A stretch of DNA of 45,363 nt, from positions 13,926 through 59,288 of the forward strand of contig CAZBJN010000001.1 of NCBI GenBank assembly GCA_964492305.1. Reading direction: 5' to 3'. The stretch comes from an uncultured Candidatus Saccharibacteria bacterium (GTDB taxonomy: Bacteria > Patescibacteriota > Minisyncoccia > Phycocordibacterales > UBA918). This document shows positions 15,722 through 33,950 of the stretch, piece by piece (position 1 is the stretch's first letter; each line of letters begins with the position of its first letter). Position numbers and translations under genes: made by a program. Below the pieces are notes generated by a model. It saw only the letters and a program-made list of their open reading frames with translations. It made no database searches and was not told the DNA's origin.

Positions 15722-15751
15722 TGTGAATAACCTGTGTATAAATTATTCCAC
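15722..15751. promoter_or_regulatory. DnaA-box-like cluster upstream of dnaA
   Basis: TGTGAATAA (15722-15730) and TGTGTATAA (15733-15741) each have 1 mismatch to TGTGGATAA. ttattccac follows at 15743-15751. Confidence 0.4.
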
Positions 15752-15837
15752 GACAAACATCAACATCCCATTAATGGCTTGGAAACAATCTTTTAGAGAA
15801 GGAGGTGTTTTTTATGATTTAAACTATTGTGAACGTA

Positions 15838-15866
15838 TTGACACACCCCTATTCGTATCCTACTAT
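15838..15866 (+). promoter_or_regulatory. sigma-70-like promoter, TTGACA-17-TACTAT
   Basis: TTGACA at 15838-15843, a 17-nt spacer, TACTAT at 15861-15866. It lies upstream of the secreted-protein gene at 15934. Confidence 0.5.
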
Positions 15867-15933
15867 TGAAATTGGTAGTCAGTTCCTTGACCTAACCAAT
15901 TCCCCAACCCCCCAACCTTTTAGGAGGTGCATC

Positions 15934-17139: not shown

Positions 17140-17868
17140 ATGTTTACATATATTTGGCACACATTTTTCTTTGACCCAGTCTACAACGGCCTGGTGTTTT
17201 TTATTGACGTAATACCAGGAGCAGACGTTGGTTTGGCGATTATTGCAACAGTGGTGGTGGTTAAGACCATCCTCCTTCCCCTTTCTATTAAGGCAGCCAA
17301 GACCCAGCGGGTAATGCGGGAGATTGAGCCAAAGCTCAAGGAGATTCGCGAGACTCTAAAAGATAAGAGGCAGGAGCAAGGCGAAGCGATGCTTAAGCTC
17401 TATCGTGAAGCTGGGATTAGTCCGTTTGCGAGTATCTTACTTATCTTCCTCCAAATTCCAATTGTCATTGCCTTGTATTTGTCGGTCAATACTGGTGGTG
17501 GAATTGCTCTCCCAGCCATTAATACAGAAATTCTGTATTCCTTTGTACGGATTCCAGAGTTCGTGAATATGAACTTCCTCGGCATGCTTGATATAACCGG
17601 TAAGAGTCTTGCCCTAGCTCTATTGGCAGGTGTAACACAGTTCTATCAGGTTAAGCTTGCGATGCCAGCGCTACCGCCACGTGATCCAGACGCCGCCCCG
17701 AACTTCAAAGAGGACTTTGGACGCAATATGCAGCTGCAGATGCGTTATGTAATGCCGGTCATCATTTTCTTTGTGGCTTACTACATATCAGCCGCCATCG
17801 CTCTCTACTTCTTTGTTAGTAACCTGGTAGCCATCCTTCAAGAGTTATATATCAAGAAGCATCGGTAG
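17140..17868 (+). CDS. yidC: membrane protein insertase YidC (short form)
   Basis: rpmH-rnpA-yidC synteny. Multi-TM protein. Motif QRVMREIEPKLKEIRE...AMLKLYREAGISPFAS. Confidence 0.85.
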   Translation: MFTYIWHTFFFDPVYNGLVFFIDVIPGADVGLAIIATVVVVKTILLPLSIKAAKTQRVMREIEPKLKEIRETLKDKRQEQGEAMLKLYREAGISPFASILLIFLQIPIVIALYLSVNTGGGIALPAINTEILYSFVRIPEFVNMNFLGMLDITGKSLALALLAGVTQFYQVKLAMPALPPRDPDAAPNFKEDFGRNMQLQMRYVMPVIIFFVAYYISAAIALYFFVSNLVAILQELYIKKHR

Positions 17869-17886
17869 AAATCATACGAATAAAAT

Positions 17887-17916
17887 AAAATCCCTCACCA
17901 ATTGGTGAGGGATTTT
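17887..17916. terminator. bidirectional intrinsic terminator
   Basis: aaaatccctcacc-aatt-ggtgagggatttt hairpin between convergent yidC and the last gene of the secretion cluster. Confidence 0.8.
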
Positions 17917-17931
17917 ATATTGGGGTATGAT

Positions 17932-18735
17932 TTATTGACCGCCTCTTGGTCTACCCTCGCCCGCTTGTGGTCTAGGTTTGTTCGGAGTGAAGCAGCTAAT
18001 TTGGTATTCATTATTGCCGTTTTGGGTTGCCGTAGATACAACATTAGGGTCCCTGGTTCGGCATTGTTCGCGAGCTGCGGTACAGTCAGCCATTTCCAGT
18101 TGTGATGCAGAATTTATGACCTGCTTACAATTATAGATATTAGTCGCACCATAGTTACAAGTTACTATGGTTCCGGAACTTGTTTTTCCTTGCGTTACTA
18201 CACCATTCGGACTTTGATAGCAGGTATCCGCCGCAGCTGTACATGTTTCCGGTGTGGTACACAAAGTTACCACATCACCCTGTCCTGCAACTCGTCCAGG
18301 TAATGGTGCGGTACCAGTTTGGGTAGGAGTGTCTCGAACCGGACGACCCGGTGCTTGAGCGGCCGGCTCAAGGAAGAGTCTCATGGCTCGTAATTGAGGA
18401 TTGATAGTCTCTAGGATGACTACAGCAGAAATAACAATCAAGAGACCAATAAGTGCCCCTTGGATGTCGCTTTTAGCATCTGCCTTTGAGGTCACTACAT
18501 CAGACAGCATGTACTTAACCCCAGCAATAATAATCTTAATTACTGCCAATAAAGCAGCAATACTTATAGATAGAATATACAGGGCATTAATATATTGCCC
18601 GATACTGGCAGTGTTGGCGTCAACTCCAGGGATACCAACCAAAACACGGAATGGAGGTGGAGGGGTTTGGGCAAAAACTATCGCCGGCGTGACGGCAATA
18701 ATAAAAGTGACAACTGAAAGAATTTTATAATTCAT
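17932..18735 (-). CDS. VirB2/TrbC-like pilin-type protein with Cys-rich C-terminal extension
   Basis: Signal peptide MNYKILSVVTFIIAVTPAIVFAQ, then two hydrophobic helices separated by a charged loop (ALYILSISIAALLAVIKIIIAG ... GALIGLLIVISAVVIL). The ~150-aa tail holds 8 Cys within ~95 aa. The family call is by architecture only. Confidence 0.5.
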   Translation of the reverse strand: MNYKILSVVTFIIAVTPAIVFAQTPPPPFRVLVGIPGVDANTASIGQYINALYILSISIAALLAVIKIIIAGVKYMLSDVVTSKADAKSDIQGALIGLLIVISAVVILETINPQLRAMRLFLEPAAQAPGRPVRDTPTQTGTAPLPGRVAGQGDVVTLCTTPETCTAAADTCYQSPNGVVTQGKTSSGTIVTCNYGATNIYNCKQVINSASQLEMADCTAAREQCRTRDPNVVSTATQNGNNEYQISCFTPNKPRPQAGEGRPRGGQ

Positions 18736-19903
18736 ACATCCAAAGGGTGTTATCAAGCTTGTTTATAAAATACAACACTTCCCCAGTGTCGTTAAGATCT
18801 AGATTAATAACATCAAGCTGACGACCACTTTCTTCAAGTGCGTCGAAAAGCAATTCGCCAGTAAGTGAGTTACCATCAAGGAGCCAAACTGAGTCAGAAA
18901 AGGTTATTTCCCCAGTGTACCAATCCTCTTGGTCACGCAGGTTTGTTTTACTACTGTCTTGGGCGCAGATAAAAATACCTTCATCTTCTACTCCAAGACA
19001 TTTCTCAACCAAGACGGCAGAATCAAGTGGCTGACTAACTCCGATTGAGTTATTGAAAAAATAACTCTTAAGTCGTTGCCCTTCAATAATGTTGTATAGG
19101 GTTATGTCGCCACTTTCCCGTGCTGTGAGGCCAAGTCCTTGAATTGGTAGACGAGTAAGTGCACTGCCTGACACTTCATAAAGTTGTCCTTCAAGGGCGG
19201 AGGCTGGTTTTGGATAGACTAAATGTGAGTCTCCTCTTCTACTCCCCCACTCAACTGATGCCTCAAGAAATGGAAGAGTGAAAAGTGGCGTTGAGCTATT
19301 ACTTTGTGGGCTATAAGTTACGGCGCTGCTACTATCTCCATCACGATTGAGGATATAAAGTTCATCGTTGTCATTAAAGGCAGCGTCAAAGGCGTTACCT
19401 TCGTACAATCTTGTGATACTAACAGTTGATGTAGATAGTGCTCCTACAGTTAGCGGCATAAGTTTTGTAGCGCTAGCACCACGCATGGCGTAGTAAAGTC
19501 CAGTGTTTGAAATTTCTGCCGCTACAGTCTGTGGGAAGGTGGTAGCAGAGACACGTAGCGTCTCGCCACTTTGGGTATTGATAGTGTAAACATGTCCGGT
19601 GCCCATTTCAACGTAATACAATAAAGCTGGTGTGGTGGTACTGAGTTGTACTTCTCTAAAACCAGCTACTGGGCCAGTTGTGAGTTGACGGAGTCGTCCA
19701 GCGTCCACGTTTACTACCGGAGCCTCTTCAACTTCAATCGGAGGTAGTATAGCTCCCTCCCCAGTCACTTCTCCCTCAGTGCCTAGGTTGGCAAAGATAT
19801 CGTCGGTGGTAGCTGGTGCTCCATAAACCAATAAATAAGCCCAAACACCCAAGAGAAGCAAGATTACCGCTAGACCACCAATAATAAAGAATTTTTTATT
19901 CAT
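18725..19903 (-). CDS. membrane-anchored hypothetical protein (392 aa)
   Basis: N-terminal TM segment FFIIGGLAVILLLLGVWAYLLVY. Tightly packed in the operon. No family recognised. Confidence 0.7.
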   Translation of the reverse strand: MNKKFFIIGGLAVILLLLGVWAYLLVYGAPATTDDIFANLGTEGEVTGEGAILPPIEVEEAPVVNVDAGRLRQLTTGPVAGFREVQLSTTTPALLYYVEMGTGHVYTINTQSGETLRVSATTFPQTVAAEISNTGLYYAMRGASATKLMPLTVGALSTSTVSITRLYEGNAFDAAFNDNDELYILNRDGDSSSAVTYSPQSNSSTPLFTLPFLEASVEWGSRRGDSHLVYPKPASALEGQLYEVSGSALTRLPIQGLGLTARESGDITLYNIIEGQRLKSYFFNNSIGVSQPLDSAVLVEKCLGVEDEGIFICAQDSSKTNLRDQEDWYTGEITFSDSVWLLDGNSLTGELLFDALEESGRQLDVINLDLNDTGEVLYFINKLDNTLWMYEL

Positions 19904-19906
19904 AGA

Positions 19907-20869
19907 CTAGAAGTTTAATTTAAACTGACCGCGCACTCCCTGGAGTAACGAGCTCAAGTTACGAACATGAAAATCAATAGTTGAGGCTGAGAAAGTTTGA
20001 TTATCGGCCGTTAAGGTTATTTCGTAGGGATTCTGGTTTGGGTTTCGAACCACTGCGCCGTTAATTTTCCATTCAACTAAATCAGGTAGATTATAGGTCT
20101 CAATAGCAAGGTTGTATGGTTCAGCCTGCATAGTGATACTGTCTCCCGTTAGGTTAAGGGATGATACTGAACGGTTACTAAGTCCATAGAGAGAACTCTT
20201 TTCATAAAAATGAAGAGTTGGTGAGACTGATGGTACTGAGACGGTGCGGCGAGCCAATATTTCACCAGTCAAAGTACTAACTTCAAGTCCAATCAAAAAT
20301 GCTGTCCCGGCCGGAGTAGTGATTGAGGTTTTGTTTTTACCACGCTGCGCTCCCCCACCAATTACGGTGTTATTCAAACGCCAGGTGTAGAGTAGATTCC
20401 CGTTAGCAATAGCAGTATTACTTAAAACTGCCGTTAGATTAACTGTACTATCAGCACTAGGAAGGGGTCTGCCGAGATAAAAAGATGGGGTTTTGGTTTG
20501 TGCTTCAACGATAATATCCAAATACCTTGGAGTGACGGTTTGTTTGATCGTTTGGGTTCGGCCAGTACTAAATGTAACCACAGCTTCAATAATTGTTGAT
20601 TGTCCCCCCTCCATAGAACGAAGGTTTAATTCTCGTAGGTTAGCGGCTGATGGTATTACTTCCCCATCAACTTTCCAGGCGATATTGGTTACCCGGTCAA
20701 TTGAAGAATAATCATCTAACGAGGCTGTAAAGGCAGTGTTTGGTTCTGGGTAGGTCGGAGTTATTTTGATTGATATACCTGGTTCAGCAATGCTGGCACC
20801 AATTTGAGCGTGGGTAACAAAAATTGGCAAAAACAGGAATATAAAAATACTTACTAGTACGTGCTTCAT
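19907..20869 (-). CDS. secreted protein with three ~100-aa repeats
   Basis: Signal peptide MKHVLVSIFIFLFLPIFVTHA. The recurring motifs IAWKVDGEVI, YTWRLNNTVI and VEWKINGAVV have their Trp at residues 65, 163 and 266. Confidence 0.7.
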   Translation of the reverse strand: MKHVLVSIFIFLFLPIFVTHAQIGASIAEPGISIKITPTYPEPNTAFTASLDDYSSIDRVTNIAWKVDGEVIPSAANLRELNLRSMEGGQSTIIEAVVTFSTGRTQTIKQTVTPRYLDIIVEAQTKTPSFYLGRPLPSADSTVNLTAVLSNTAIANGNLLYTWRLNNTVIGGGAQRGKNKTSITTPAGTAFLIGLEVSTLTGEILARRTVSVPSVSPTLHFYEKSSLYGLSNRSVSSLNLTGDSITMQAEPYNLAIETYNLPDLVEWKINGAVVRNPNQNPYEITLTADNQTFSASTIDFHVRNLSSLLQGVRGQFKLNF

Positions 20870-20915
20870 ACAGTAATCATAACAAATTAAATTTCATAAT
20901 TACTGCTCCAAGTGG

Positions 20916-21680
20916 TTATTTTGGGTATTTCCAGACCACTGCCACAAAGACCAAAAACCAAGGGAATAGGTTCAAAATTGGGGTAGCGTAGCCAATGATA
21001 GCTATCAAGAAAGCCACATACTTGGTGCCAGAATGTTCACCGGAAAGTGGTTGTATTAAAGACGCCATGTATTGAAAACTGGCGGCACACAAAGTTCCAA
21101 AACCAATCGCAAATACAACCATATAAAGTGCCATAAAAACTCCAGCTCCTATATCGCTAACACTAATTGTTGTGCCAGATATTAACCATGTCCCCCCTTC
21201 CACTGCTCGCTCAACTAACCAGCCACCTATTCTAGTTACCAGATTGCTACTTATACCCGCATCTCCAGCCCCCATGAGACCAAGAAAGATTGTACTAATT
21301 AGGGCAAATATCACTTGTATAGTCCATAGAGACATACCCCAGGCCACAATTGAGGCGCTGACAGTTGTGGTCTTGGCGTACTTAAAAAGCTTCTTGTTGT
21401 TGCGTAACGAAAGTATTGTTTTTCGACCAGGTATGGTGGGTCGTACATTTGGGGTTGAGATAGAGTGCTCAGGCAGATGTGACTTTGCTTGGTCAACAGC
21501 TTTTTTGGCGATTCGTTCTTCGCGTTCACGAAGGGTGGGGTTGACTGAGCTCATTAGCCTTGGATCAGCTTCCACATCAGAAACTAGACCCCGACGCTCA
21601 ACCTTCTGGGCGTTGCGTACCTGGTACTGGTAGGTATTTGGAGATTGCCCTTCGTTAGATTGTCTTTGCGGGAGCGCCAT
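20916..21680 (-). CDS. polytopic membrane protein, hypothetical
   Basis: Hydrophilic ~100-aa N-terminus followed by 4-5 hydrophobic segments. Lies directly downstream of the VirB4-like gene. Confidence 0.65.
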   Translation of the reverse strand: MALPQRQSNEGQSPNTYQYQVRNAQKVERRGLVSDVEADPRLMSSVNPTLREREERIAKKAVDQAKSHLPEHSISTPNVRPTIPGRKTILSLRNNKKLFKYAKTTTVSASIVAWGMSLWTIQVIFALISTIFLGLMGAGDAGISSNLVTRIGGWLVERAVEGGTWLISGTTISVSDIGAGVFMALYMVVFAIGFGTLCAASFQYMASLIQPLSGEHSGTKYVAFLIAIIGYATPILNLFPWFLVFVAVVWKYPK

Positions 21681-21695
21681 ATACGCATAAGTATA

Positions 21696-23498
21696 CTACA
21701 TGCGTGAACTCTGGTATTCTTCGCGGGCTTTTTTGATTTGGAGAAGTTGAGCTGGGTCAGAGGTGATAATTTGGTTTTCTGTATATGAACCGAGAATTCT
21801 AATAGCTACGTGTTTCATACCAACGAAGAATATCCCCTCCCCAACGTTTGATTCTAGAAGCAAGAACTTCTCCTCATCAGTCAGGTTAAAGGTTTTTTGA
21901 ATGTTATCGATAGCCGTTGGTGACTGCTTCATCAAAAATTGCATTGATGAGTTGGTAATCATTGGTACTCCATATGGGGAGCGTAAGAAGTCGTCCACGT
22001 CTTGGGTAATAGTTGCGATACCCAAGTAGTACTTTCTTCCTCGCTTGGCCATACTAAAGAGGAATGAAGCCGTGTCTTCAGATTTCATCATCCACCAAGC
22101 TTCGTCGATAACCAGTAAACGCTTAACCATTCGTCGTCTCACTGACCCCCAGATAAAGTTTGTGATGATGTACATCGCAATGGTCTTGAGCTCATCTTCC
22201 ATGTCTCGTAGTGAGAACACCACAAACTTTTGGTTAATATCAACGTTTGTTGGTTGGTTCATGAACCCAGACCAAGTACCAGAAGTGTACTTTTGTAGTC
22301 GAGTAATAAGTGACGCGCTACCGTCCATACCAGCTAGCACCATCTCAAAGTCAGAGAGAAGTGGTGGTTCTTGGCTACCAAAATCTGAGTCACCGGTAAT
22401 ATCCTTTAGGGCATAGGTTTCTTGGATGGCAAGGTCAAGTACAGTCTCCTCTTCGGGACTGAGTCCACCAAGCATCAAACGGAAAAGACCAATTAATTCA
22501 ATGATGTGACTGCGAAGAATATCGCGCGGATTTTCGTCTGGAAGTGGTGGTGGAAGGTCAAACGGATTAATGTGGTGATCAGAAGAAAGTGAAATATTAA
22601 AGAATCTTCCACCAGTAGCTTCAGCTAGATACTCATACTCACGTTCTGGGTCTAGCACAATCACCTCTGTTCCAAACATCAGTGAACGCAAAATCTCGAG
22701 CTTCAAAGCGTATGACTTCCCTGCTCCAGAAGTAGCAAAGGTTACAGAATTGTAGTTGGTAAGAGAAAATCTATCAAAGAGTACCAAGGATGAATTGTGG
22801 CGGTTTACGCCGTAAAGTACACCAGTGTCAGAAGTTAGGTCAAAAGAGGTAAATGGGAAAAAGCTTGAAAGTGGTGAGGAGTTAAATTTGCTGTGTACCA
22901 ACAGTTGGTCTGTAGCCAGCGGTAAGGTACTTTGCATACCCTGCTCTTGCTGGAATAGGGCCGGCTTGATGTAGACGAGGCGAGCGTCCAAGATTCCTTT
23001 GATGTCATTCTCAGCCTTATTAAGAGCGGCGTCATTTTCGCCGTAGATGGTTATATATAGACCAACATCAAAAAGCTTCTCTTCAGATTGTTGGAGTTTG
23101 TCGCGAAGTTCTTCGAGGTTACGGTAAGCGGCTTCGAGTTGCGGGTCTCGCACTTCCCCCTTCTCAGCTTTGATATTTATTTGGCTCTGTACCTCGGCTA
23201 CCTTTTTCTGGAATTTCTTTAAAGTTTCAGACGTGTCTATAGGATGAATAACAATTGAGACGTCCAATTCCTTTTCGAGATTAAGGATAGGTTCCATCCA
23301 ACCTTCAGTTAAGTATCGTGGGTAGGCCACGGCGTAATACACCCGGGCACTCATGCCACTGATGTTGATACTACGCGGGCCAATATTTATGGCTGAAGGA
23401 GCAATAACGTCAGTCAGTGTAAGTAACTGGTCACTGACTGAAGGCGTACCCTCTACAGGTTGGTTGTTTTTTGGTTGTAGGAAATCAAACAATGCCAT
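21696..23498 (-). CDS. virB4: VirB4/TrbE/CagE-family type IV secretion ATPase
   Basis: Walker A ATSGAGKSYALK, Walker B LLVIDEAWWMM, N-terminal VIAPSAINIG...YPRYLTEGWM pattern typical of VirB4. Start set at MALFDF (23498); the track ORF extends to 23576. Confidence 0.85.
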   Translation of the reverse strand: MALFDFLQPKNNQPVEGTPSVSDQLLTLTDVIAPSAINIGPRSINISGMSARVYYAVAYPRYLTEGWMEPILNLEKELDVSIVIHPIDTSETLKKFQKKVAEVQSQINIKAEKGEVRDPQLEAAYRNLEELRDKLQQSEEKLFDVGLYITIYGENDAALNKAENDIKGILDARLVYIKPALFQQEQGMQSTLPLATDQLLVHSKFNSSPLSSFFPFTSFDLTSDTGVLYGVNRHNSSLVLFDRFSLTNYNSVTFATSGAGKSYALKLEILRSLMFGTEVIVLDPEREYEYLAEATGGRFFNISLSSDHHINPFDLPPPLPDENPRDILRSHIIELIGLFRLMLGGLSPEEETVLDLAIQETYALKDITGDSDFGSQEPPLLSDFEMVLAGMDGSASLITRLQKYTSGTWSGFMNQPTNVDINQKFVVFSLRDMEDELKTIAMYIITNFIWGSVRRRMVKRLLVIDEAWWMMKSEDTASFLFSMAKRGRKYYLGIATITQDVDDFLRSPYGVPMITNSSMQFLMKQSPTAIDNIQKTFNLTDEEKFLLLESNVGEGIFFVGMKHVAIRILGSYTENQIITSDPAQLLQIKKAREEYQSSRM

Positions 23499-23508
23499 AA
23501 ATAGATAC

Positions 23509-24141
23509 TTAGGTGTTAAATACTGGAGCCGCTCCAGTTGGATCAGTTGGATTATAAATGTGATAGTACAGCTCAACCAAATCTTCAGACTTCAAAGGGA
23601 TAGTGCGAACACCAATTCGAGACAGTCCTTGTTCGACTACTGATATACGCTGTTCCAGTTGGATGCGATGCTCTTCAAATTGCATATCAGCTGGGGTGGC
23701 CTTTTGCCCTGGCGAGAAGAATGACGTAATACCTTTGCTGATGTTGATGGCGGCTGGTGTATAAGGGACTACCACAAAGAAACTTTTACTCATAACATCA
23801 ACTTCCGAGGTGAAGGTCCGGATAAAGTCCATGTATTCACGGAGCTGAATTCGCATAAGGTCGTTGTCTTGTAGGCTTTCACGGGTAGCAAGTAGTGCTA
23901 GGTAAGGTTCGATGTTTAGACGTCTTGATTGCACGTAGATTTGGAGTGAGAAATCTAGAGTATTAAGAAAGCTTTGGAATTGATGCAAAATTGCTTGTTG
24001 TTCATCGCCAGATTTCAGGGCAAAGTTAATTGAAGAAGCCAAAAGCACGGAACACATTTGTCCGCTCTTGAGAATAACAACACCATCTTTTATATCTTTG
24101 ATGGCAACAAAATCTTGTGAAGAGGGAGTGGCTTTTGGCAT
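23509..24141 (-). CDS. secretion-cluster protein resembling a VirB4 N-terminal domain
   Basis: 210 aa. The pattern FVAIKDIKDGVVILKSGQMCSVLLASSINFALKSGDEQQAILHQF is reminiscent of N-termini of Gram-positive VirB4-type ATPases. No ATPase motifs are present. Confidence 0.35.
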   Translation of the reverse strand: MPKATPSSQDFVAIKDIKDGVVILKSGQMCSVLLASSINFALKSGDEQQAILHQFQSFLNTLDFSLQIYVQSRRLNIEPYLALLATRESLQDNDLMRIQLREYMDFIRTFTSEVDVMSKSFFVVVPYTPAAINISKGITSFFSPGQKATPADMQFEEHRIQLEQRISVVEQGLSRIGVRTIPLKSEDLVELYYHIYNPTDPTGAAPVFNT

Positions 24142-24142
24142 A

Positions 24143-24562
24143 TTATTCTTTTTTTTGTAAAGCTTCTAATTCGAGGCGTCGTGCTAGTGAGGCGATGTTC
24201 TTTGGGGCGTTTAATGGTGAGGCATTTGGAAGTGGAGCGTCAGGAATTTGCGAAGGGGTGAAGTTGTACTTGTGTACCTGATCTTGCTTCTGCTTCCAGA
24301 GGTAGAGTTTAGTCCCGCCTAAATAGCCAATGATAGCCTCAAGGAAGAATGAGAACGGTCGGTTGTTAACTGGGTAAAAAGCCAAAGCACCGGCCAGGAG
24401 AGCTAGCGGCAAACCAAAGATTACAAAAATAATAAATGGGGTAGTAAAAAATAGTACCACTCCCATCCCTACCCCACCGCCGAGGTAGAGAAACTGACGC
24501 CAGGTAAGTGGACCAAAGATTTTGTCTTCAATCTCAATAAATTGTGGGACTTCAAATCGCAT
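24143..24562 (-). CDS. PrgI-family / VirB3-like membrane protein
   Basis: MRFEVPQFIEIEDKIFGPLTWRQFLYLGGG followed by two TM helices. Start at 24562 is supported by TATAAT exactly 6 nt upstream. Confidence 0.6.
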   Translation of the reverse strand: MRFEVPQFIEIEDKIFGPLTWRQFLYLGGGVGMGVVLFFTTPFIIFVIFGLPLALLAGALAFYPVNNRPFSFFLEAIIGYLGGTKLYLWKQKQDQVHKYNFTPSQIPDAPLPNASPLNAPKNIASLARRLELEALQKKE

Positions 24563-24625
24563 GTTTCTATTATACACGCTTCCTCTCCACTCTTTGTAAT
24601 AATTGAAGTAGACTATCCCCAATTT

Positions 24626-24653
24626 AAAAAGCCTCCCGAGTGGGAGGCTTTTT
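24626..24653. terminator. intrinsic terminator inside the secretion cluster
   Basis: aaaaagcctccc-gagt-gggaggcttttt hairpin. Confidence 0.75.
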
Positions 24654-24664
24654 AACTTAGCCCT

Positions 24665-25159
24665 TTATTTACTTTCGTTGATGATTGCGGACTGAGTACT
24701 GGTGTAGGTGTCTTCGGTGGTACTGCTGTAACCAATTTGTTTTCCATCACTCGCCATGGTGCGAACAGGATTAATTTGGTGTAGTGACTTTTCAATTTCC
24801 GCTAAGTCTTCTTCAATGGATGATTGAGGAAGAGGTGTAGAAGTGACCAATTCTTCCGGTAGAGTAGCCGTACGTACATCGCTTACTATTTGAGCGATAC
24901 ATAGCTTAGCAGTGTCAGGATCAACGCCAAGTTCAACCAATAAGTTCACAATCTCCCCATCTTGTATTGAGCCAAGAGCTAAATAAATATAAGCATTTGA
25001 AAAATTTTTCCGTAAATCAGGAGGAAGCACATACTGGACGTATAAAGCATCAACTGCTTTCATTATTTGCTCTGAGTCGATATACAATTTTACTGTATCA
25101 GGCGCGGCCTGATACTCTGTAGAAAAACTATCGTGGTACTTGATCCAGAAATTGTTCAT
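24665..25159 (-). CDS. hypothetical protein (164 aa, no TM)
   Basis: ORF packed between the VirB6-like gene and the internal terminator. No family recognised. Confidence 0.6.
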   Translation of the reverse strand: MNNFWIKYHDSFSTEYQAAPDTVKLYIDSEQIMKAVDALYVQYVLPPDLRKNFSNAYIYLALGSIQDGEIVNLLVELGVDPDTAKLCIAQIVSDVRTATLPEELVTSTPLPQSSIEEDLAEIEKSLHQINPVRTMASDGKQIGYSSTTEDTYTSTQSAIINESK

Positions 25160-25173
25160 AATAATAGTTTATT

Positions 25174-27168
25174 TTAGTAGCCCAGCATCGAAGCAAATAT
25201 ATCCTCTCTTATCCATTTATTCCACCTATCTTTTTCTTTGATTGGTGTCGATGGGTCTGCAATATAGGTATCAATATTACCCTTTATTGCTACCTTCTCA
25301 GCAGTAGTTAAGTTATTCTTTAGCCTTTCTACTATCATAGGAGGCTTAATATATTTGGCCATATTAGGGTCAGAGAAGATACTAGCAGGGAGCTTCCCGA
25401 CCTCCTTAATGCTCTTATTAAGCAGTTCGGCGCGTTGTGATGTAATTACAGTCGCACTTGGGTTGTGGGCTGTAGATATTGTGCTGCCTCCAGTAGCAAT
25501 TGCCGCAAATCCAGTCTTGCGGGCGCTCTTAATTTGTTGTATATCTTGAGCACTAAACTTACCTGATTTTTCAAGATTTTCAAAATCACTATCAGAATAA
25601 TGAACAGCCATGTTAGTAACTTTTCGCAGTGAAGCCGGGTCCCCTTTCTTTAGGTCTTTCAAAGAGTCAGCTACAAGATTCTCTTTTTCTTCTTTGGTCA
25701 TGTCACGAATTGTTTTGCTCAAGTCTGTAAGTGCTGTCTCTAGATCGGTAGCAGATTTTGTGTTGTCTTCCAGAGTGGTATTAGCGGCATCCAACTCAGC
25801 CTTGCGCTTTTCTTCAGCTGCGGTTTGATTAGCTCTTGATTGAGTCTTGGCAGCATAATCCTGCTCAGCTTTTCGACTGGTACCAGTACCGAACTGTGCA
25901 GCCGTAGCAGCCGTAGCAGCCCCCCTAGCTTTTCTGTCAACGACGTTGGTCCTAGCAGCTTTTCCTACCCAACCATCTCTAGTTTGTAGTACATTGAGTT
26001 TCTTTTCTGCCCAAGCCCCAGTTCTGTTAGCGACTTCACGTCCGGCCAATCTCGGGGCATACGTGGCTACGTTTACCGCTCCCTTCCCTGCACCAACTGC
26101 AATTTTTTTGGTTCGGTTGGTAAATCTGCTGGCTGCTTGTCGGCCCATCGATACCGCCGTATCGGCTCCATGTGCTCCCATCTTTTGGGCAACTACCAGT
26201 GAAGCGATAAGGAAACCAGCCGTCATAAAGAAGAACGGAATCACCGCACCGAAGTTGTTCCCCACTGTACCGGTTTGTCCTGAAAATACAGCGCCATAAC
26301 TACCAGTATTCATTCCGTTGGCTCCCTGCATACTAACCAAGACTTGGTTGGCGAAGTACAGCATGAGTAGGTACGCTGGTGCAAAAAAGGCTCGACTCAT
26401 GAATTTAGTCCAGTAGCTATGTGAGACTGAAGCCATTCCAGGGAAAACCCAGCCCAAGAACATAACTGGAGACAGAATCATGTAGATGATAAGTACAATG
26501 TAGCGGATAATCAGCATGATTCCCCCGGCCATAAACACGAAGGCTAGAATGATGTATAAGAACATCGTACTAAAGATATAAGTGTAGCTAGCTGAGCTGC
26601 CGGCAATCTTAGACAAAGTTGCTCCAGGGCTAAACAATTCATTAAACCCAAGAATGTTCATGAACGACGAAGAAACAGAGTGAGTCCCGTTCTGTAGTGG
26701 AAAGGCTGCAGCAATTTGTGCCGCAGCGATATTTGAGAAGTCGATCACAAACTTTGTGATGAAGAGACTGAAGTTTACCAAGAGAGCAGCGAGTATCAGT
26801 GAAATCAGCATGCTGCGCGCTCTTGAGTCACCATTGTTTAGGATTAACTTTAGTCCGATGTACACCAACCCAAAGATAAAGGTAAGGTTGAATACATCAC
26901 GCACTACTGTCCAGAGGATGTTGACGGAGTTTCCGGTGCCTGATTCGAGGAAGTTGTGTCCAAATCCAACCACGTAGTGAGTTACGGCATAGTTGAGAGT
27001 TTGACCACCTAACCAAGCAAAGAAACCGAAGACAGCGTTAACGACGCTCCAAAGGGTTTCTTGAATAAAACTCGTTTGAGCTAAAGCCAGGTGTGGTACA
27101 AACAAAACCACCAAAACAGCTGCAATAAGCGCGTTGTGCATTAGGCTGATTTTGTGGAATTTGTTCAT
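25174..27168 (-). CDS. TrbL/VirB6-like polytopic membrane protein with long hydrophilic C-terminus
   Basis: Signal peptide, at least 6 hydrophobic segments over ~330 aa, then a ~300-aa charged, coiled-coil-like tail. Family assignment is by architecture and context. Confidence 0.55.
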   Translation of the reverse strand: MNKFHKISLMHNALIAAVLVVLFVPHLALAQTSFIQETLWSVVNAVFGFFAWLGGQTLNYAVTHYVVGFGHNFLESGTGNSVNILWTVVRDVFNLTFIFGLVYIGLKLILNNGDSRARSMLISLILAALLVNFSLFITKFVIDFSNIAAAQIAAAFPLQNGTHSVSSSFMNILGFNELFSPGATLSKIAGSSASYTYIFSTMFLYIILAFVFMAGGIMLIIRYIVLIIYMILSPVMFLGWVFPGMASVSHSYWTKFMSRAFFAPAYLLMLYFANQVLVSMQGANGMNTGSYGAVFSGQTGTVGNNFGAVIPFFFMTAGFLIASLVVAQKMGAHGADTAVSMGRQAASRFTNRTKKIAVGAGKGAVNVATYAPRLAGREVANRTGAWAEKKLNVLQTRDGWVGKAARTNVVDRKARGAATAATAAQFGTGTSRKAEQDYAAKTQSRANQTAAEEKRKAELDAANTTLEDNTKSATDLETALTDLSKTIRDMTKEEKENLVADSLKDLKKGDPASLRKVTNMAVHYSDSDFENLEKSGKFSAQDIQQIKSARKTGFAAIATGGSTISTAHNPSATVITSQRAELLNKSIKEVGKLPASIFSDPNMAKYIKPPMIVERLKNNLTTAEKVAIKGNIDTYIADPSTPIKEKDRWNKWIREDIFASMLGY

Positions 27169-27194
27169 AACAATGTGTGTGGTGGTCTAGGTCT

Positions 27195-28694
27195 TTAGTT
27201 GTTCGAGGCGGTGTTGGCTTCAATTGCGTCTAGGGTTGCTTGGGCTTCTTCAGCACGTTGCCGGGCCTCAGGGTCTTCTTCTGGGGGTGGAACTTCTCGG
27301 ATGTAGCGTTCCCAGTTGTTAATTTGAGCATTTACTAGGGCGTCGTTATGAAGTTCTAGTCTGGCGTACTCTTCGGCGATGGCCTGACGTTCACGTTTAG
27401 TTACTTCTGTATCAGCAGCTGGGTCAGGGAGACGGGCTTGGCGAGCGAGAAGATCTTCTACTGCGGCAATATTTCGGTATATGCCGGGTAGGATAGTGAT
27501 GATTATTTCTGCTTCATCTCGTGCAGCGGCCTTCTGCAGTGGATGAGCTGGGCTACTGGTAGCGGCAAACTCTAGAAGTAATGGATAGGCATGTACTGCT
27601 GCATCACGATAGCGTCGTTCTGTAGCAAGAGCTGACTCCATATCTCCGACGAACTCTTCTTGATCTATAGTATTTTCCAAAGCTACATCACCTAAGTATG
27701 AGCCGGATTCATATCCTTCGTACGTTTGTCCAGTACCGCCAGATAGGCCTAAGAGTCCAGCGGCACCAGTAATTGCAGTTTGGGTAAGTTGACTAAATAA
27801 GGCGGCTAGAATTTCTTGAATTTCGTCAGCCTCAATGAGAACACGACCCCCTACTTCTAGTTGGAAGCTAAGTGCTTCTTGAATAGCTTTTCCTGGTGTT
27901 GAAATAACACAGTTTTGCATAGTGCCTTCCCCACCAACAGACTCACAGATTCGACTTGATAGGAAGCCACTACCGTAATTGAGTAGAGTCGATTCACGTT
28001 TTTTGGCTTCCTCCACTTTTGATTCCGCTAGACGCTCTGAGGTCAGGTATTGTCCGTAAGCGGTATAGGTCTCTGGCTTGGTGGTAATTTCTAGCCAAGC
28101 ATCCCAACCACCTTCATTAAAGTTTCCAGACATAAAGCTCTCGATATTTTCTAGAGCTCCGGTAATTGTACAACTTGGAGCGCTGTTATCGCGGGTCTCA
28201 GACTTAATGGTGGCCAGTGCAATTCGGACATCAAGTCTAAATGGGTCACATAAGAATGACAGGTCAGCCATTTGCTCTAGGTATAGACCTAAAGTCTCAT
28301 CAGCAGCATTAAGCAGGAAGCGATCTAGGTCTTGGACAAAGGATGGACTACCCTCAAAACCAGTATTAATCCAGTTAATGATACTGGTAACCATGTTTGA
28401 AAGGGTTTGTTTGGCCATGGCCCACATCAATCCATCAAGTGTCAGCTCTTTGTAGTTTAGAGTAGTCTGGAGCCCAGCTGATACTCCAGTTGAAGCGGCG
28501 GTTGAGCCAGTTGTACCGGCAGTGACGGTGTTAACAGCAGTGTTGCCAGGATCTGAGATCACACTACCAGAAGCCAGAGCGTGAGCTTCTTTGATTTCAT
28601 TAAATGGTTGTGGAATGTATGTGGCAGTGAAGGCAACAATCAGGAGGAAGAGTCCTGTGGCGAATTTTTGTACGATGTTGTGAAAAGAATTCAT
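27195..28694 (-). CDS. secreted/membrane-anchored hypothetical protein (499 aa)
   Basis: N-terminal hydrophobic segment FATGLFLLIVAFTATYI, Thr/Gly/Ala-rich linker, charged helical C-terminus. Confidence 0.7.
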   Translation of the reverse strand: MNSFHNIVQKFATGLFLLIVAFTATYIPQPFNEIKEAHALASGSVISDPGNTAVNTVTAGTTGSTAASTGVSAGLQTTLNYKELTLDGLMWAMAKQTLSNMVTSIINWINTGFEGSPSFVQDLDRFLLNAADETLGLYLEQMADLSFLCDPFRLDVRIALATIKSETRDNSAPSCTITGALENIESFMSGNFNEGGWDAWLEITTKPETYTAYGQYLTSERLAESKVEEAKKRESTLLNYGSGFLSSRICESVGGEGTMQNCVISTPGKAIQEALSFQLEVGGRVLIEADEIQEILAALFSQLTQTAITGAAGLLGLSGGTGQTYEGYESGSYLGDVALENTIDQEEFVGDMESALATERRYRDAAVHAYPLLLEFAATSSPAHPLQKAAARDEAEIIITILPGIYRNIAAVEDLLARQARLPDPAADTEVTKRERQAIAEEYARLELHNDALVNAQINNWERYIREVPPPEEDPEARQRAEEAQATLDAIEANTASNN

Positions 28695-28711
28695 AAAATT
28701 TCTATTACCTA

Positions 28712-29602
28712 TTAGTTGCTACCTCTGTAATCCACGAATAATAAAGCCGAATCGTTTCGTTCAAAGGCACTGGCATACGGCAATACCGCCTGGTACATGT
28801 TTTCCATCGCGTACACCAGTCCGTCGGCGTCATCCTCGTAGCGCTGTAAGCGAATCAAGCTGACCATTGGGTCTGTGATGGCGCCCTGCATAGCTGAAAT
28901 ATCAATATAGAGCGCCTGGTAGACGTTAATTAAATCCAAATGCATTTTGGCCAATTGGGGTGGAACTACTAGCTTCTGAACTTGTTCAGACATGTTTTTG
29001 TAGGCATTGGCGATTACACCGAGCTCCTTTGCGGCCTCAGGACTAGCGGTTTTTAGAAGTTCATCAAGAACTTCAAGCTCAGGACGTGTCCCGGTTTTAC
29101 CGTAGGTAAGGATAATGTCAGCATGGGAGTTAGCGTAAGTGCGAACCGCTTGGGCTGACGAGTCCTCACCAATCACGATGCTTCTGACGTCAATTATGGT
29201 GTCTTTGGCTAGGCTGGTTAGGTTTTTAATTGTGTCATTCAAAACCTGCTCCTCTGTGCGGCCAATTCCGTCGTACCCTTTCATGCGAACGATGTCTTGA
29301 AAAAAGTTTACACCAAATTGCTCAGTCACTGTTTCTGGGACAAATGGAGTGGTGGTACTAGTGTTTGACCGGATAGTTTGTGATGGAGTAATAAATGTCT
29401 CACGCCAATCTTCTATACCGTCATCGTTAGCATCCTGTACTTCTATAGCAACCCGAGTTGGGGCAGCAGCCACAGTTGCAACACTCTCTGTTGGAACTGA
29501 GAGTGTTGGTTTGGTAAATGAACTGAGGGTATATGCACCAGCGACGATGGCAAAGCCTACGACAAAAGCGCCAATGACTCTATTTTTAGATTGGTCATCC
29601 AT
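28712..29602 (-). CDS. membrane-anchored hypothetical protein (296 aa), first gene of the cluster
   Basis: TM segment VIGAFVVGFAIVAGAYTL and a DANDDGIEDW acidic motif. TATAAT sits exactly 6 nt upstream of the ATG. Confidence 0.7.
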   Translation of the reverse strand: MDDQSKNRVIGAFVVGFAIVAGAYTLSSFTKPTLSVPTESVATVAAAPTRVAIEVQDANDDGIEDWRETFITPSQTIRSNTSTTTPFVPETVTEQFGVNFFQDIVRMKGYDGIGRTEEQVLNDTIKNLTSLAKDTIIDVRSIVIGEDSSAQAVRTYANSHADIILTYGKTGTRPELEVLDELLKTASPEAAKELGVIANAYKNMSEQVQKLVVPPQLAKMHLDLINVYQALYIDISAMQGAITDPMVSLIRLQRYEDDADGLVYAMENMYQAVLPYASAFERNDSALLFVDYRGSN

Positions 29603-29702
29603 TCATTTATTATAGCAGTTAAACCGCGGACGCTTTCTTAGGTGTGTATATATCTGTGTATGAAATGTGAGTAGCGTGTATTAAGTATGAAACTGCTGTG
29701 GA

Positions 29703-30569
29703 TTAGAGTGTGGATAGTTTTTTGGTCAGTAGCAGCCAGTTGTTGAGTGATACATCTTCCCCGCGGATAGTGAGCGACAGGTCAAGTTCGGTAAATACCG
29801 TCTCTAAATCATCTCGCTTAAATTTTTCAGTGAGGTTAGCCAGTAGTTGCTTGCGCTTCTTACCTAGGCCAAGATGAAGGATTTCAAAAAAAAGAGCCGT
29901 GTATACTCCAATAAAGTGGTCACGATTAATGTTTTTTATAGTCAAAATGGCTGAATCCACCTTTGGAATAGGGTGGAAATGACCCCGGCCGACAGATTTA
30001 CTGTAAATTGGCTCCCCAAACGCTTTTACAGAAAGCGATAACAGGGATTCTTTTTTGGCGCGGGCGATTCGGACAGCCAGCTCTTTTTGGATTAAAAAGG
30101 TCAAAGTAGAAGGCTGAATGGCAGTTTCTAGGAGGGATCGCAGCAAAAAACCTGATAAATAATAAGGAATGTTGGCTACTACCTTAAAAGAGTGGTCAGT
30201 AAGTCCAAGATAGTGGGGAGTTATTTCCCTTGCATCGCCATGGTGAATTGATAGTTGACCAGACTCAATTTGTTGGGAAAAGGTACTTTTGAGTGTCTCA
30301 ATTGCTCTTATATCTGCCTCAACTGCGATGACTCGGGCGCCGGTGGCCAGTAAGGCCTTGGTCAACATACCAGTGCCTGGTCCGATTTCTAGCACTAGGT
30401 CGTTGGCCGTAACTTCGGCTGACGCAGCCATCCAGCCCGGCACAATGTCGCTGGTTAGAAAGTTTTGACCCAATGAGCGTTTGTGGGCAAATTTTTCTGG
30501 TGTTTCGCCTTCTTTATCAACGGGCTTCCCTCTTAGTTTCCCGTGGTGTTTTGTCATGTCTTCGAGCAT
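29703..30569 (-). CDS. rsmA: 16S rRNA (adenine1518/1519-N6) dimethyltransferase
   Basis: KRSLGQNFL, LEIGPGTGMLT, VANIPYY. Confidence 0.9.
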   Translation of the reverse strand: MLEDMTKHHGKLRGKPVDKEGETPEKFAHKRSLGQNFLTSDIVPGWMAASAEVTANDLVLEIGPGTGMLTKALLATGARVIAVEADIRAIETLKSTFSQQIESGQLSIHHGDAREITPHYLGLTDHSFKVVANIPYYLSGFLLRSLLETAIQPSTLTFLIQKELAVRIARAKKESLLSLSVKAFGEPIYSKSVGRGHFHPIPKVDSAILTIKNINRDHFIGVYTALFFEILHLGLGKKRKQLLANLTEKFKRDDLETVFTELDLSLTIRGEDVSLNNWLLLTKKLSTL

Positions 30570-32918: not shown

Positions 32919-33950
32919 ATGACATATCAAGCCGACACTATTTCTCCGAAGAGAGCTTTTCTAGAATATCTCGCAGTGTTGCTCATTATTATTATTCCAA
33001 TCTCAGTACAAGCTGGGATTTTTGGCGGTGCTGATACAGCTGAAGCCAAAGACACTAACCTTTCAAATGTAGAGAACAGTAAATCTGCCATCGATGTGTC
33101 AGTTTTGTCTGCTCAGCAAAACCCAAATCCGCAAGGCGCTCTTGGTGGGGCTGAGGTATTAGTTAACGAAGACACTCTCGTATCTTCAGGTCCGGTTGGA
33201 GCTGATGTGATTGCAAGTACCAAAGCCTCTTCAGGCGAGATTAGCGTGTACACTGTGCGCAGTGGCGACACCCTCTCTCACATCGCTGAGATGTACGGAG
33301 TAACTACAAACACCATTCTCTGGGCCAACGATCTTCCGCGCGCTACTAGTATTCGCGAGGGACAGACACTTATTATTTTGCCGATTGCTGGAGTGCGTCA
33401 CACAGTTGTGAAGGGTGACACTATTAATTCCCTTGCCAAGAAGTACGATGGCGATGCAGAAGAAATCACTTCATACAACGAGCTTTCAGCTGATGATGGA
33501 CTTATCGTCGGTTCAATCATCGTGATTCCTGGTGGCGCTATCCACACTGCTCCAGTAGTAGCTGCTCAACCGGTTCGTACCTCAGGTTCAACTTCGGTCT
33601 CAGGCGCAGGTTGGTTATCACACCCAGTTCCAGGAGCTATTAAGACACAAGGTATTCACGGCTATAACGCCATCGACCTAGCGGCTGGAGCAGGAACCTC
33701 AATTAGAGCAGCTGCCGGCGGAGAAGTTATAGTTTCAAAGAGTTCAGGCTGGAACGGCGGATACGGACAATATATTGTAGTGAAGCATGCTAACGGCGCT
33801 CAAACACTTTACGCTCACCTTTCACAAAATCACGTTGGAGTTGGAGCTTATGTCAGTCAAGGAGAAGTGATTGGTGCTATGGGTAACACTGGCCGCTCTA
33901 CTGGTACCCACCTTCACTTTGAAGTCCGTGGTGCTGGCAATCCATTCTAA
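32919..33950 (+). CDS. LysM-domain M23 family peptidoglycan endopeptidase
   Basis: Two LysM repeats (YTVRSGDTLSHIAEMYG, HTVVKGDTINSLAKKYD). M23 motifs HGYNAIDLAA and GTHLHFEVRG. Confidence 0.85.
   Translation: MTYQADTISPKRAFLEYLAVLLIIIIPISVQAGIFGGADTAEAKDTNLSNVENSKSAIDVSVLSAQQNPNPQGALGGAEVLVNEDTLVSSGPVGADVIASTKASSGEISVYTVRSGDTLSHIAEMYGVTTNTILWANDLPRATSIREGQTLIILPIAGVRHTVVKGDTINSLAKKYDGDAEEITSYNELSADDGLIVGSIIVIPGGAIHTAPVVAAQPVRTSGSTSVSGAGWLSHPVPGAIKTQGIHGYNAIDLAAGAGTSIRAAAGGEVIVSKSSGWNGGYGQYIVVKHANGAQTLYAHLSQNHVGVGAYVSQGEVIGAMGNTGRSTGTHLHFEVRGAGNPF

Follow-up and report, generated by a model that had tools for sequence, protein, structure and literature searches.

The window analyzed here is the whole 45,363-nucleotide stretch (positions 13,926 to 59,288) of contig CAZBJN010000001.1 in assembly GCA_964492305.1, and it carries, close to dnaA and dnaN, a compact type IV secretion system (T4SS) gene cluster of a kind already known from the Patescibacteria. 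The cluster occupies 17932-29602, where 11 minus-strand genes lie co-directionally and tightly spaced, at intergenic distances ranging from an 11-bp overlap to a gap of ~100 bp. The first-pass annotation of this DNA had correctly described the tight, co-directional packing but had counted twelve genes, and review of the open reading frames (ORFs) reduced that number to 11. Start codons were refined against orthologues, giving ATG 23498 for VirB4, ATG 24562 for PrgI, and ATG 18735 for the pilin, in place of the mechanical ORF starts TTG 23576 for VirB4 and TTG 24622 for PrgI. The genes, numbered g1 to g11, and the features at the two ends of the cluster are as follows.

29603..29702, minus strand: spacer between ksgA and g1, probable promoter region (sequence inspection)
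28712..29602, minus strand: g1, 296 aa, transmembrane (TM) anchor, linker, and extracytoplasmic helical bundle, orphan family
27195..28694, minus strand: g2, 499 aa, TM-anchored, large orphan family
25174..27168, minus strand: g3, 664 aa, extended VirB6/TrbL-like polytopic membrane protein
24665..25159, minus strand: g4, 164 aa, small soluble orphan
24143..24562, minus strand: g5, PrgI/VirB3-type small membrane protein
23509..24141, minus strand: g6, 210 aa, TrsD/TraD-type protein
21696..23498, minus strand: g7, VirB4 ATPase, CD1110/MPF-FATA type, 600 aa counted from the ATG
20916..21680, minus strand: g8, 254 aa, polytopic orphan
19907..20869, minus strand: g9, 320 aa, signal peptide and tandem Ig-like beta-sandwich domains
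18725..19903, minus strand: g10, 392 aa, N-terminal TM anchor and TolB-like beta-propeller
17932..18735, minus strand: g11, VirB2-like pilin with Cys-rich C-terminal tail
17885..17918, minus strand: terminator-like hairpin, 15-bp stem and T run, directly after the pilin stop codon

The sole ATPase of the cluster, VirB4 (g7), matches the Pfam families P-loop_TraG (5.9e-26) and AAA_10 (1.1e-10) as well as TraC_F_IV, and it passes the NCBIfam model NF045971 for VirB4-like conjugal transfer ATPases of the CD1110 family with 358 bits (cut-off 325). Its sequence contains the Walker A motif SGAGKS and the Walker B motif LLVIDEAW. It also gives a weak, partial match to the CedB model (1.5e-8, far under the cut-off). 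A second core component, g5, matches PF12666 at 6.4e-10, above the gathering score, and by analogy with other PrgI/VirB3 proteins we infer that it is the membrane anchor for VirB4. Both proteins had been named in the first-pass annotation, VirB4 on its Walker motifs, and both names were confirmed: the profile hidden Markov model (HMM) searches suggested there as a check gave significant Pfam and NCBIfam matches for VirB4.

The gene between them, g6, had been listed among those that could not be assigned to any family, but its product is of the TrsD/TraD type and aligns with the N-terminal part of full-length VirB4 models. It matches the TrsD model NF041427 at 4.6e-6 and positions 103-233 of the 894 in VirB4_plasma, the mycoplasma VirB4 model, at 1.9e-8, both under the whole-protein cut-offs. 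On the CD1110 VirB4 model it occupies positions 7-119 of 752, and the VirB4 gene itself covers positions 165-732. Judged from these alignments, the two genes jointly span nearly all of one full-length VirB4 model and would constitute a split VirB4. BLASTP detected no similarity between g6 and the VirB4 of the window, and the link to the VirB4 N terminus comes only via the profile models. We also used hhalign to compare all 11 family profiles with every gene of two further loci, one from Pontibacillus and one from Embleya (see below), and matches were limited to VirB4, TrsD, PrgI, the pilin, and, in Embleya only, VirB6. In these comparisons, the g6 profile scored 99.6% against the gene upstream of VirB4 in the Pontibacillus locus and 97.9% against the C-terminal half of the Embleya PrgI family protein, a PrgI-TrsD fusion.

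The large membrane protein g3 has at least five TM segments followed by a hydrophilic C-terminal half of ~330 aa, an architecture that on sequence grounds fits the "extended VirB6" type described previously (PMC12857230). Neither Pfam nor NCBIfam matches the window protein directly, and the earlier designation of this polytopic protein as TrbL/VirB6-like is therefore supported only through orthologues, the assignment being transitive through the family: 16 of 59 orthologues match PF04610 TrbL/VirB6 (best 2e-8), the top PDB match of the family profile is TrwI, the VirB6 of R388 (7o3v_F; E = 1.2e-3, ~250 residues aligned), and the protein encoded upstream of PrgI in the conjugative Embleya locus is matched by hhalign with 94.5% probability. 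The VirB2/TrbC-like pilin likewise proposed in the first pass (g11) consists of a signal peptide and a two-helix hairpin, together ~130 aa, and then a variable, Cys-rich C-terminal tail of ~140-150 aa. Its own score against PF18895 (1.3e-5, 25.6 bits) lies just under the cut-off of 26.6, but that proposal holds, with 54 of 61 orthologues matching PF18895 and 14 matching PF04956 TrbC/VirB2. In addition, the window protein matches NF045849, the Mbov_0395 pilin-like family, at 9.5e-5, and the pilin profile scored 96% in hhalign against two pilin-like genes of the Pontibacillus locus; tblastn against plasmids found no match. Conservation of the pilin is limited to the first ~130 residues, and the orthologues range from 122 to 580 aa in length. 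No second pilin gene was found in the window, which has a single gene and not an array.

Conservation of the cluster was assessed in a scan of one genome per GTDB species, which returned 589 stretches encoding a confirmed VirB4 relative; the comparisons reported here use the best 80 of these relatives (66-89% identical), each from a distinct species-level genome. The 80 genomes are metagenome-assembled genomes labeled mostly Paceibacteria, Kaiserbacteria, Parcubacteria, and similar Patescibacteria lineages. The Saccharibacteria affinity proposed earlier was not borne out, the closest VirB4 relatives being labeled Paceibacteria/Kaiserbacteria. Where the contigs reach, the order in the 80 loci is dnaN, dnaA, rnpA, yidC, pilin, g10, g9, g8, VirB4, TrsD, PrgI, g4, VirB6, g2, g1, ksgA, and uvrD, with pilin and g10 exchanging places in some lineages; PrgI was found in 79 of the 80 loci and g6 in all of them. 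The synteny check suggested in the first pass thus shows the same gene order recurring between the same housekeeping genes among the 80 species genomes. Median identity to the window proteins is 69% for VirB4, 66% for UvrD, 59% for DnaA, 53% for the TrsD-like g6, 51% for PrgI, 46% for YidC, 39% for DnaN, and 26-33% for the extracytoplasmic accessory proteins and the VirB6-like protein. In this set of loci, VirB4 is about as conserved in sequence as DnaA and UvrD.

Signs of mobility were sought around the cluster. The left flank comprises yidC (17140-17868, plus strand), rnpA, dnaA (14221-15606), and dnaN, with dnaA and dnaN 2-5 kb from the cluster, and the right flank comprises ksgA, uvrD/pcrA, a LysM-M23 hydrolase, a ComM-like ATPase, a DksA/TraR-type protein, and PNPase. 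The GC content of the cluster (0.42-0.47) equals that of the rest of the window. We found no border integrase and no border tRNA, and the flanks are kept in the 80 genomes; att repeats were not searched. An Rfam scan of the window returned only one tRNA, at 77-150, and none at the cluster borders. No type IV coupling protein (T4CP), relaxase, VirB11, or VirB7-10 was detected by Pfam in the window ORFs scanned, nor any of these or a mobility gene among precomputed Pfam matches for ~9 kb past the right end. The first-pass annotation had reported a window devoid of coupling protein, relaxase, VirB11, and VirB7-10 and a position near oriC with neighbor-like GC and no border integrase, and it had read the cluster as a resident cell-surface machine rather than a conjugative element. 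Our data agree on each of these points, the last being upheld by the conserved synteny, the DnaA-level conservation of VirB4, and the lack of mobility genes. Because it shares its flanks across species, is conserved at housekeeping level, and is accompanied by no mobility genes, the cluster clearly evolves with the genome, as far as sequence can tell, as a vertically inherited resident machine.

The cluster is an instance of the already published Patescibacteria-clade T4SS and not a new kind of system. The first-pass annotation had supposed that such loci in the candidate phyla radiation (CPR) were uncharacterized in substrate, architecture, and accessory proteins. The cargo and most of the accessory proteins are indeed unexplained, but transposon sequencing (Tn-seq) data and a phylum-wide survey are in print. 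Wang et al. (2023) described in "Ca. Southlakia epibionticum" ML1 a homologous cluster near dnaA, SEML1_0006-0019, whose products include PrgI, VirB4, VirB6-like proteins, and PF18895 pilins from an array of genes but neither a relaxase nor a T4CP, and showed by Tn-seq that most of these T4SS genes are essential for growth on the host (PMC10633639). The two clusters share a chromosomal position close to dnaA/dnaN, the lack of a relaxase or T4CP within the cluster, the order PrgI, a protein later called TrsD-like, and VirB4, a large VirB6-like protein upstream, and PF18895 pilins. They differ in class, S. epibionticum belonging to the Saccharimonadia and the organism studied here being Paceibacteria-like, and in content. 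In S. epibionticum, six short pilin genes form a divergently oriented array, whereas the window has one long-tailed, Cys-rich pilin at the operon end; S. epibionticum has two VirB6-like proteins of ~1,000 aa, compared with one of 664 aa here; and after virB4 it encodes lysozyme-rich and 1,113-aa proteins where the window encodes a small polytopic protein, a tandem-Ig protein, and a TolB-like propeller. This contrast in accessory genes is based on gene lengths, product names, and the partial, structure-based annotations in the supplementary tables.

The survey of Quinonero-Coronel et al. (2025) places patescibacterial VirB4 in a clade of its own related to MPF-FATA, reports TrsD, PrgI/VirB3, VirB6, and VirB2-like pilins near virB4, with relaxases almost absent and T4CPs rarely close, and describes a virB4 neighborhood of dnaA, dnaN, rnpA, ksgA, and rpmH in Paceibacteria and Microgenomatia (PMC12102498). 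Our locus shows the MPF-FATA-related VirB4, TrsD, PrgI/VirB3, the VirB2-like pilin, the lack of a nearby relaxase or T4CP, and the dnaA, dnaN, rnpA, and ksgA neighborhood, with VirB6 recognized through its orthologues, and we found nothing in it at odds with the survey, which also cites a cultured strain of the class Paceibacteria. The accessory families g1, g2, g4, g8, g9, and g10 are absent from the main text of the survey, and genes without profile homology are drawn gray in its synteny figure.

Outside the phylum, the closest plasmid relatives of VirB4 are from Actinomycetota and Bacillota, at 33-36% identity. With the MPF-FATA systems (pIP501 Tra, pCF10 Prg, pGO1 Trs, and CTn2/CD1110-type integrative and conjugative elements [ICEs]) the cluster shares the VirB3-TrsD/TraD-VirB4 module, a VirB6-like protein upstream, a CD1110 VirB4, and the lack of an outer-membrane core (VirB7, 9, and 10). 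Unlike those conjugative systems, it is chromosomal, vertically inherited, and origin-proximal, it has, in what we scanned, no relaxase, T4CP, VirB8-like (NTF2) protein, or in-cluster VirB1 hydrolase, no oriT was noted although no search aimed at one was made, and it possesses a VirB2-like pilin, which MPF-FATA systems generally lack. The Embleya locus, a near plasmid relative, carries both a T4CP and a relaxase. A closer parallel comes from the Pontibacillus sp. ALD_SL1 megaplasmid NZ_CP062975, which at 351-361 kb encodes two Mbov_0395-type pilin-like genes, a 780-aa protein, PrgI-like and TrsD-like proteins, a CD1110 VirB4, and a 1,050-aa M23 hydrolase, next to flagellar genes. Neither a relaxase nor a T4CP is annotated in a 25.8-kb stretch there, and MOB-suite types the plasmid as non-mobilizable. 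The order pilin-like protein, large membrane protein, PrgI-like, TrsD-like, and CD1110 VirB4 is the same in this locus and in the Mbov_0395/0397-type modules of Mycoplasma ICEs, and the succession PrgI, TrsD-like, VirB4 agrees between Pontibacillus and our cluster. Between our cluster and Pontibacillus, hhalign gave 96-100% for pilin, TrsD, and VirB4 and 88% for the PrgI-like protein, whereas the VirB4 proteins are only 33% identical, the M23 hydrolase follows VirB4 there, and no counterparts of g1, g2, g8, g9, or g10 were detectable by hhalign. From its gene content, the Pontibacillus locus looks like a non-CPR analogue of a relaxase-less, pilin-bearing monoderm T4SS. More distant precedents are Bordetella Ptl, Brucella VirB, Helicobacter pylori ComB, and Sulfolobales Ced, all without a relaxase and, except for Ced, without a coupling protein, which show that VirB4-centered machines can secrete Sec-delivered proteins or import DNA; these systems, however, serve Gram-negative or archaeal envelopes with other accessory sets, and we found no sequence relationship to them beyond VirB4, VirB6, and VirB2.

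The accessory genes gave a more uneven picture. The first-pass annotation had listed eight ORFs without a nameable family, and for four of them (g1, g2, g4, and g8) this remains true; g6 proved to be TrsD-type, g9 a tandem-Ig protein, g10 a TolB-like propeller, and the remaining part the tail of the g11 pilin. Family matches for VirB6, the pilin, the propeller, and the Ig protein emerged once entire orthologue sets were scanned; the same approach brought none for g1, g2, g4, or g8. The g9 profile matches the Ig domains of T4 Hoc in the PDB at 1.7e-6, and 32 of 67 orthologues match BiPBP_C, with others matching Ig_3 and PKD-like families; its sequence identifies it as a predicted secreted or wall-associated tandem-Ig protein. 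The g10 profile matches a TolB beta-propeller in the PDB at 5.8e-7, its orthologues give weak PD40, WD40, and DPPIV_N matches, and it has two invariant cysteines, C302 and C313.

Among the orphans, g1 has a TM segment at residues 9-27 and no Pfam, NCBIfam, or PDB sequence match, and orthologues were detected in 34 of the 80 loci, many of which end short on the g1 side; a g1 with 82% identity to that of the window lies on a 914-kb contig. The structure prediction and Foldseek comparison recommended in the first pass were run on g1 and g2. For g1, AlphaFold2 gave a confident, all-alpha bundle (predicted local distance difference test [pLDDT] 81, helices at 92-292) that matches in the PDB only generic four-helix-bundle sensor domains, weakly (E > 0.1), with no VirB5/TraC structure among the top 50 Foldseek matches. 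A VirB8-like identity for g1, which would call for an NTF2 fold, was rejected on this all-alpha model. For g2, the model was mediocre (pLDDT 65, core poorly modeled) and Foldseek found nothing in the PDB. The g2 family has a conserved core of ~320 aa with four near-invariant cysteines and a variable C terminus, and an exhaustive HMM search collected 5,403 clusters (50% identity) at E <= 1e-3, although Pfam has no model for it. Some g2 orthologues carry C-terminal F5/8-type-C lectin, Ig, PKD, or beta-helix modules; no Pfam domain lies over the conserved core among the 120 relatives listed. The window protein itself has no Pfam or NCBIfam match, and tblastn against plasmids came back empty. Matches of the g2 profile in the PDB were coiled-coil noise only (Ski7) and were dismissed.

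The two smaller orphans are fixed in position. g4 is fast-evolving and has no Pfam, NCBIfam, or PDB match, and an iterative HMM found a family member at its position in 59 of 61 loci. g8 has no Pfam or NCBIfam match, and the same kind of search found a family member at its position in 46 of 58 loci; it has a basic, hydrophilic N-terminal region of ~100 aa, then 3-4 TM helices at ~110-239, and a conserved C-terminal motif, PLSG..K..GY.P.LN.PW..VVW.YP. The earlier statement that g8 starts with a signal peptide or TM segment does not fit this topology, while the exception made there for g4 was justified, as no TM segment is predicted in it. Overall, no VirB8-like NTF2-fold protein was recognized in the cluster (g1 is all-alpha, g9 Ig-like, and g10 a propeller), although the poorly modeled g2 core could conceivably hide such a domain.

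The cluster appears to form one operon. The hairpin at 17885-17918 probably marks its 3' end, judging from its stem, T run, and position. At the upstream edge, the ksgA-g1 spacer contains an extended -10 element, TGcTATAAT, ~8 nt ahead of the g1 ATG, a distance so short that the g1 transcript may be leaderless. In a promoter scan, sigma-70-like sites were scarcer than they were after shuffling of the sequence, which made the scan uninformative. Two DnaA-box-like 9-mers, each with one mismatch, also lie here, 12 bp apart at the upstream edge of the cluster, within 29603-29717. Across 29 related loci, such 9-mers are ~3.6-fold denser per kb in the ksgA-g1 spacer than in the loci overall, and in related loci 9 of 10 spacer 9-mers share the gene orientation. 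These sites could reflect DnaA-linked regulation of the T4SS operon, or chance. ATACAC motifs are repeated within the same spacer. Around dnaA we found one exact DnaA box and three with one mismatch; DnaA-box-like sites lie at 15722-15741, 14039, and 14105, and the dnaA-rnpA spacer is the likely oriC/rpmH region. A 195-aa mechanical ORF in that spacer (15829-16416, plus strand) has a counterpart in none of the 80 related loci and is probably not a gene.

Several neighboring genes were also noted.

32919..33950, plus strand: LysM-LysM-M23 peptidoglycan hydrolase, 3.3 kb upstream of the cluster on the opposite strand (Pfam Peptidase_M23 5.1e-28, LysM 4.3e-25)

By analogy, this hydrolase may be a candidate wall-opening enzyme and VirB1 analogue, and LysM/M23-containing VirB1-type matches associate with virB4 in Paceibacteria (PMC12102498). 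The first-pass claim that the window lacks VirB1 is accordingly true of the cluster, where none was found, but is qualified by this gene. Next to it is a ComM-like Mg-chelatase ATPase (33996-35543), and ruvB/ruvC are also in the window. At 35518-37513 (minus strand), a DksA/TraR-type zinc-finger protein of 125 aa is preceded by a 536-aa ORF without a Pfam match, a pair kept on other contigs, apparently from the same organism. Two RNA-degrading enzymes, PNPase (37564-39801) and an NYN nuclease (39818-40390), are encoded 8-10 kb from the T4SS. A tyrosine recombinase with Phage_integrase and SAM-like N-terminal domains (40921-41856, plus strand) lies 11 kb off, between two M14 genes and rpsO, and its context is repeated on two other groundwater contigs with an identical neighboring M14 peptidase. 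Given this distance and the conserved rpsO context, a Xer protein fits better than an ICE integrase, and the enzyme is most likely XerC/D. The M14 genes are tandem zinc-carboxypeptidase paralogues (296 and 309 aa; 41896-43715, minus strand) that may act on the wall or on peptides and are unrelated to the T4SS. On the other side, a PilB/GspE-type T2SSE ATPase with an MshEN domain (5178-6914, plus strand) is encoded 11 kb from the T4SS. With a PilB-type ATPase near the origin, tubes on such cells could stem from either a type IV pilus or the T4SS. The same organism was found in Rifle-type groundwater metagenomes.

Gram-negative T4SSs use VirB4 to release VirB2 pilin from the membrane into which it has been inserted, VirB3 tethers VirB4 to that membrane, and pilus assembly takes place on a platform of VirB6 and VirB5; in the solved VirB2/TraA pili, both pilin termini face outward. 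VirB4, the TrsD-like protein, VirB3, VirB6, and VirB2 without a T4CP correspond to a pilus-assembly module minus substrate recruitment, which favors a pilus or tube as the product. We therefore consider it probable, with lower confidence for the details, that the cluster encodes a resident, MPF-FATA-derived T4SS of the Patescibacteria clade that builds a VirB2-type pilus or tube. Monoderm conjugation machinery of the MPF-FATA type would have lost its DNA-processing and coupling functions and become a housekeeping operon beside oriC. VirB4 would dock at the membrane via PrgI and the TrsD-like protein and pull Sec-inserted pilin from the membrane, and the pilin would polymerize on the VirB6-like platform into a VirB2-type pilus or tube. 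If the termini point outward here as well, the pilus surface would be covered by the variable, Cys-rich tail, which could plausibly set host specificity. Wall-spanning scaffold or adhesive parts that replace VirB7-10 and VirB8 may be supplied by the TolB-like propeller, the secreted tandem-Ig protein, g1, g2, and g8, and the LysM-M23 hydrolase may open the wall. The resulting structure would touch or penetrate the host cell on which obligate epibionts depend. A role in host contact is supported by the adhesion-type folds of the accessory proteins, the lectin modules of some g2 orthologues, and the hypervariable pilin tail. In line with such a role, a 2026 preprint on a cultured patescibacterium that feeds on host RNA reports tubular structures extending to the host, which it suggests may be T4SS pili (bioRxiv 10.64898/2026.06.21.733656).

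Several observations weigh against this interpretation. The cluster itself has no VirB8-like or VirB1-like gene; the window pilin and VirB6-like proteins score below curated thresholds and are assigned via their orthologue families; the roles suggested for g1, g2, g4, g8, g9, and g10 derive from topology and modeled or profile-based fold class only; and the pilus of this uncultivated organism is a prediction from its genes. The 80 loci were picked as the best VirB4 matches, which biases the identity comparison toward VirB4. The essentiality data come from S. epibionticum, of another class (Saccharimonadia), whose cluster, judged by gene lengths and product names, differs in its accessory genes and has six arrayed pilin genes. 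Finally, a T4CP could be encoded elsewhere in the genome, so that, judged from a 45-kb window, conjugation or T4CP-dependent secretion may still occur, and VirD4-like T4CPs do occur in many Patescibacteria, mostly distant from virB4 (PMC12102498).

Other functions can be imagined for the same genes. The tube might be an import device that pierces the host envelope and takes up host RNA or nucleotides, with VirB4 powering assembly and retraction or uptake. The preprint cited above reports host-RNA uptake and suggested T4SS tubes, finds VirB4 and PNPase each monophyletic in the phylum, and proposes that PNPase and VirB4 are ancestral to the RNA-feeding lifestyle; PNPase and the NYN nuclease are encoded ~8-10 kb from our cluster, import-type T4SS relatives exist in H. 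pylori ComB and Sulfolobales Ced (DNA import; PMC12102498), VirB4 has its weak CedB match, and the lack of a nearby T4CP or relaxase suits a machine that does not choose outgoing substrates. However, the preprint calls the uptake mechanism unresolved, the link between T4SS and RNA uptake is without genetic support, no cluster protein resembles a nucleic-acid-binding or translocating protein, and the proximity of PNPase may reflect only the clustering of core genes near oriC, so that we regard import as a possibility worth keeping in view but an unlikely one. Transport might also run outward, as in a T4CP-independent protein exporter like Bordetella Ptl, in which Sec would carry effectors or toxins through the membrane and VirB4/VirB6/VirB2 would then drive them out of the cell or onto the host. 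Effector systems without a T4CP are known (Ptl and Brucella VirB; PMC12102498, PMC12857230), Wang et al. favor protein export or an alternative role (PMC10633639), several cluster proteins have a Sec signal or anchor and are extracytoplasmic, and the lectin or beta-helix modules of g2 orthologues are typical of secreted factors. Yet Pfam and NCBIfam reveal no toxin or enzyme domain in any cluster protein, the accessory proteins keep a constant order, as structural parts would, and do not vary as effectors do, and Ptl crosses a Gram-negative periplasm and outer membrane, neither of which a monoderm has; we find export of this kind rather improbable.

The least likely of these three functions is a ComB-type, competence-related T4SS that takes up DNA for natural transformation, which we consider very unlikely. 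DNA-processing genes are nearby (uvrD/pcrA adjacent, the ComM-like ATPase at 33996-35543, and ruvB/ruvC), and T4SS loci co-localize with comF, recG, and radA in class ABY1 (PMC12102498), but the genes in our window belong to the usual set of core genes near the origin, whose synteny is conserved. More tellingly, competence in S. epibionticum needs type IV pili and ComEC, and deletion of comEC abolishes transformation but not viability (PMC12857230), whereas the T4SS is essential (PMC10633639); it is because comEC is dispensable for viability and the T4SS is not that DNA uptake ranks last. Even more improbable, to the point of being hardly credible, is a decayed or cryptic ICE with its relaxase, T4CP, and integrase encoded immediately beyond the window. 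VirB4 does belong to the conjugative CD1110 family, its plasmid relatives at 33-36% identity include the Embleya locus with T4CP and relaxase, and a tyrosine recombinase is present at 40921-41856. Against these stand the identical yidC-ksgA position in dozens of species genomes, the housekeeping-level conservation, the uniform GC, the lack of a border tRNA, the position of the Xer-like recombinase 11 kb away by rpsO, and the absence of a mobility gene in ~9 kb further right. The ICE hypothesis was rejected on synteny and the absence of mobility genes from the stretch scanned.

Taking the pilus- or tube-building T4SS as the preferred interpretation, one may speculate, at a low level of probability, that the Paceibacteria T4SS is a feeding organelle: a VirB2-type tube with hypervariable, disulfide-stabilized surface domains for host recognition, assembled by a minimal VirB4/TrsD-like/VirB3/VirB6 core without a T4CP and held in an as yet undescribed scaffold of the propeller, the tandem-Ig protein, g1, g2, and g8, that would extract cytoplasmic macromolecules of the host such as RNA. 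Patescibacteria account for a large share of bacterial diversity, their cultivated members are obligate epibionts, and few envelope machines besides the T4SS have been shown to be indispensable to the epibiotic lifestyle, in its case so far in Saccharimonadia only. The locus described here is a clean, compact Paceibacteria example, with all 11 positions conserved across many species. To the published picture it adds an explicit VirB4/TrsD split, folds for the TolB-like propeller and the tandem-Ig protein, four orphan families fixed in position (the g2 family being very large), a pilin whose tail is hypervariable, and a non-CPR analogue in Pontibacillus. The biology of the Patescibacteria T4SS is an attractive problem, for which the orphan families and the decorated, variable pilin tail lend themselves to structural and genetic study.

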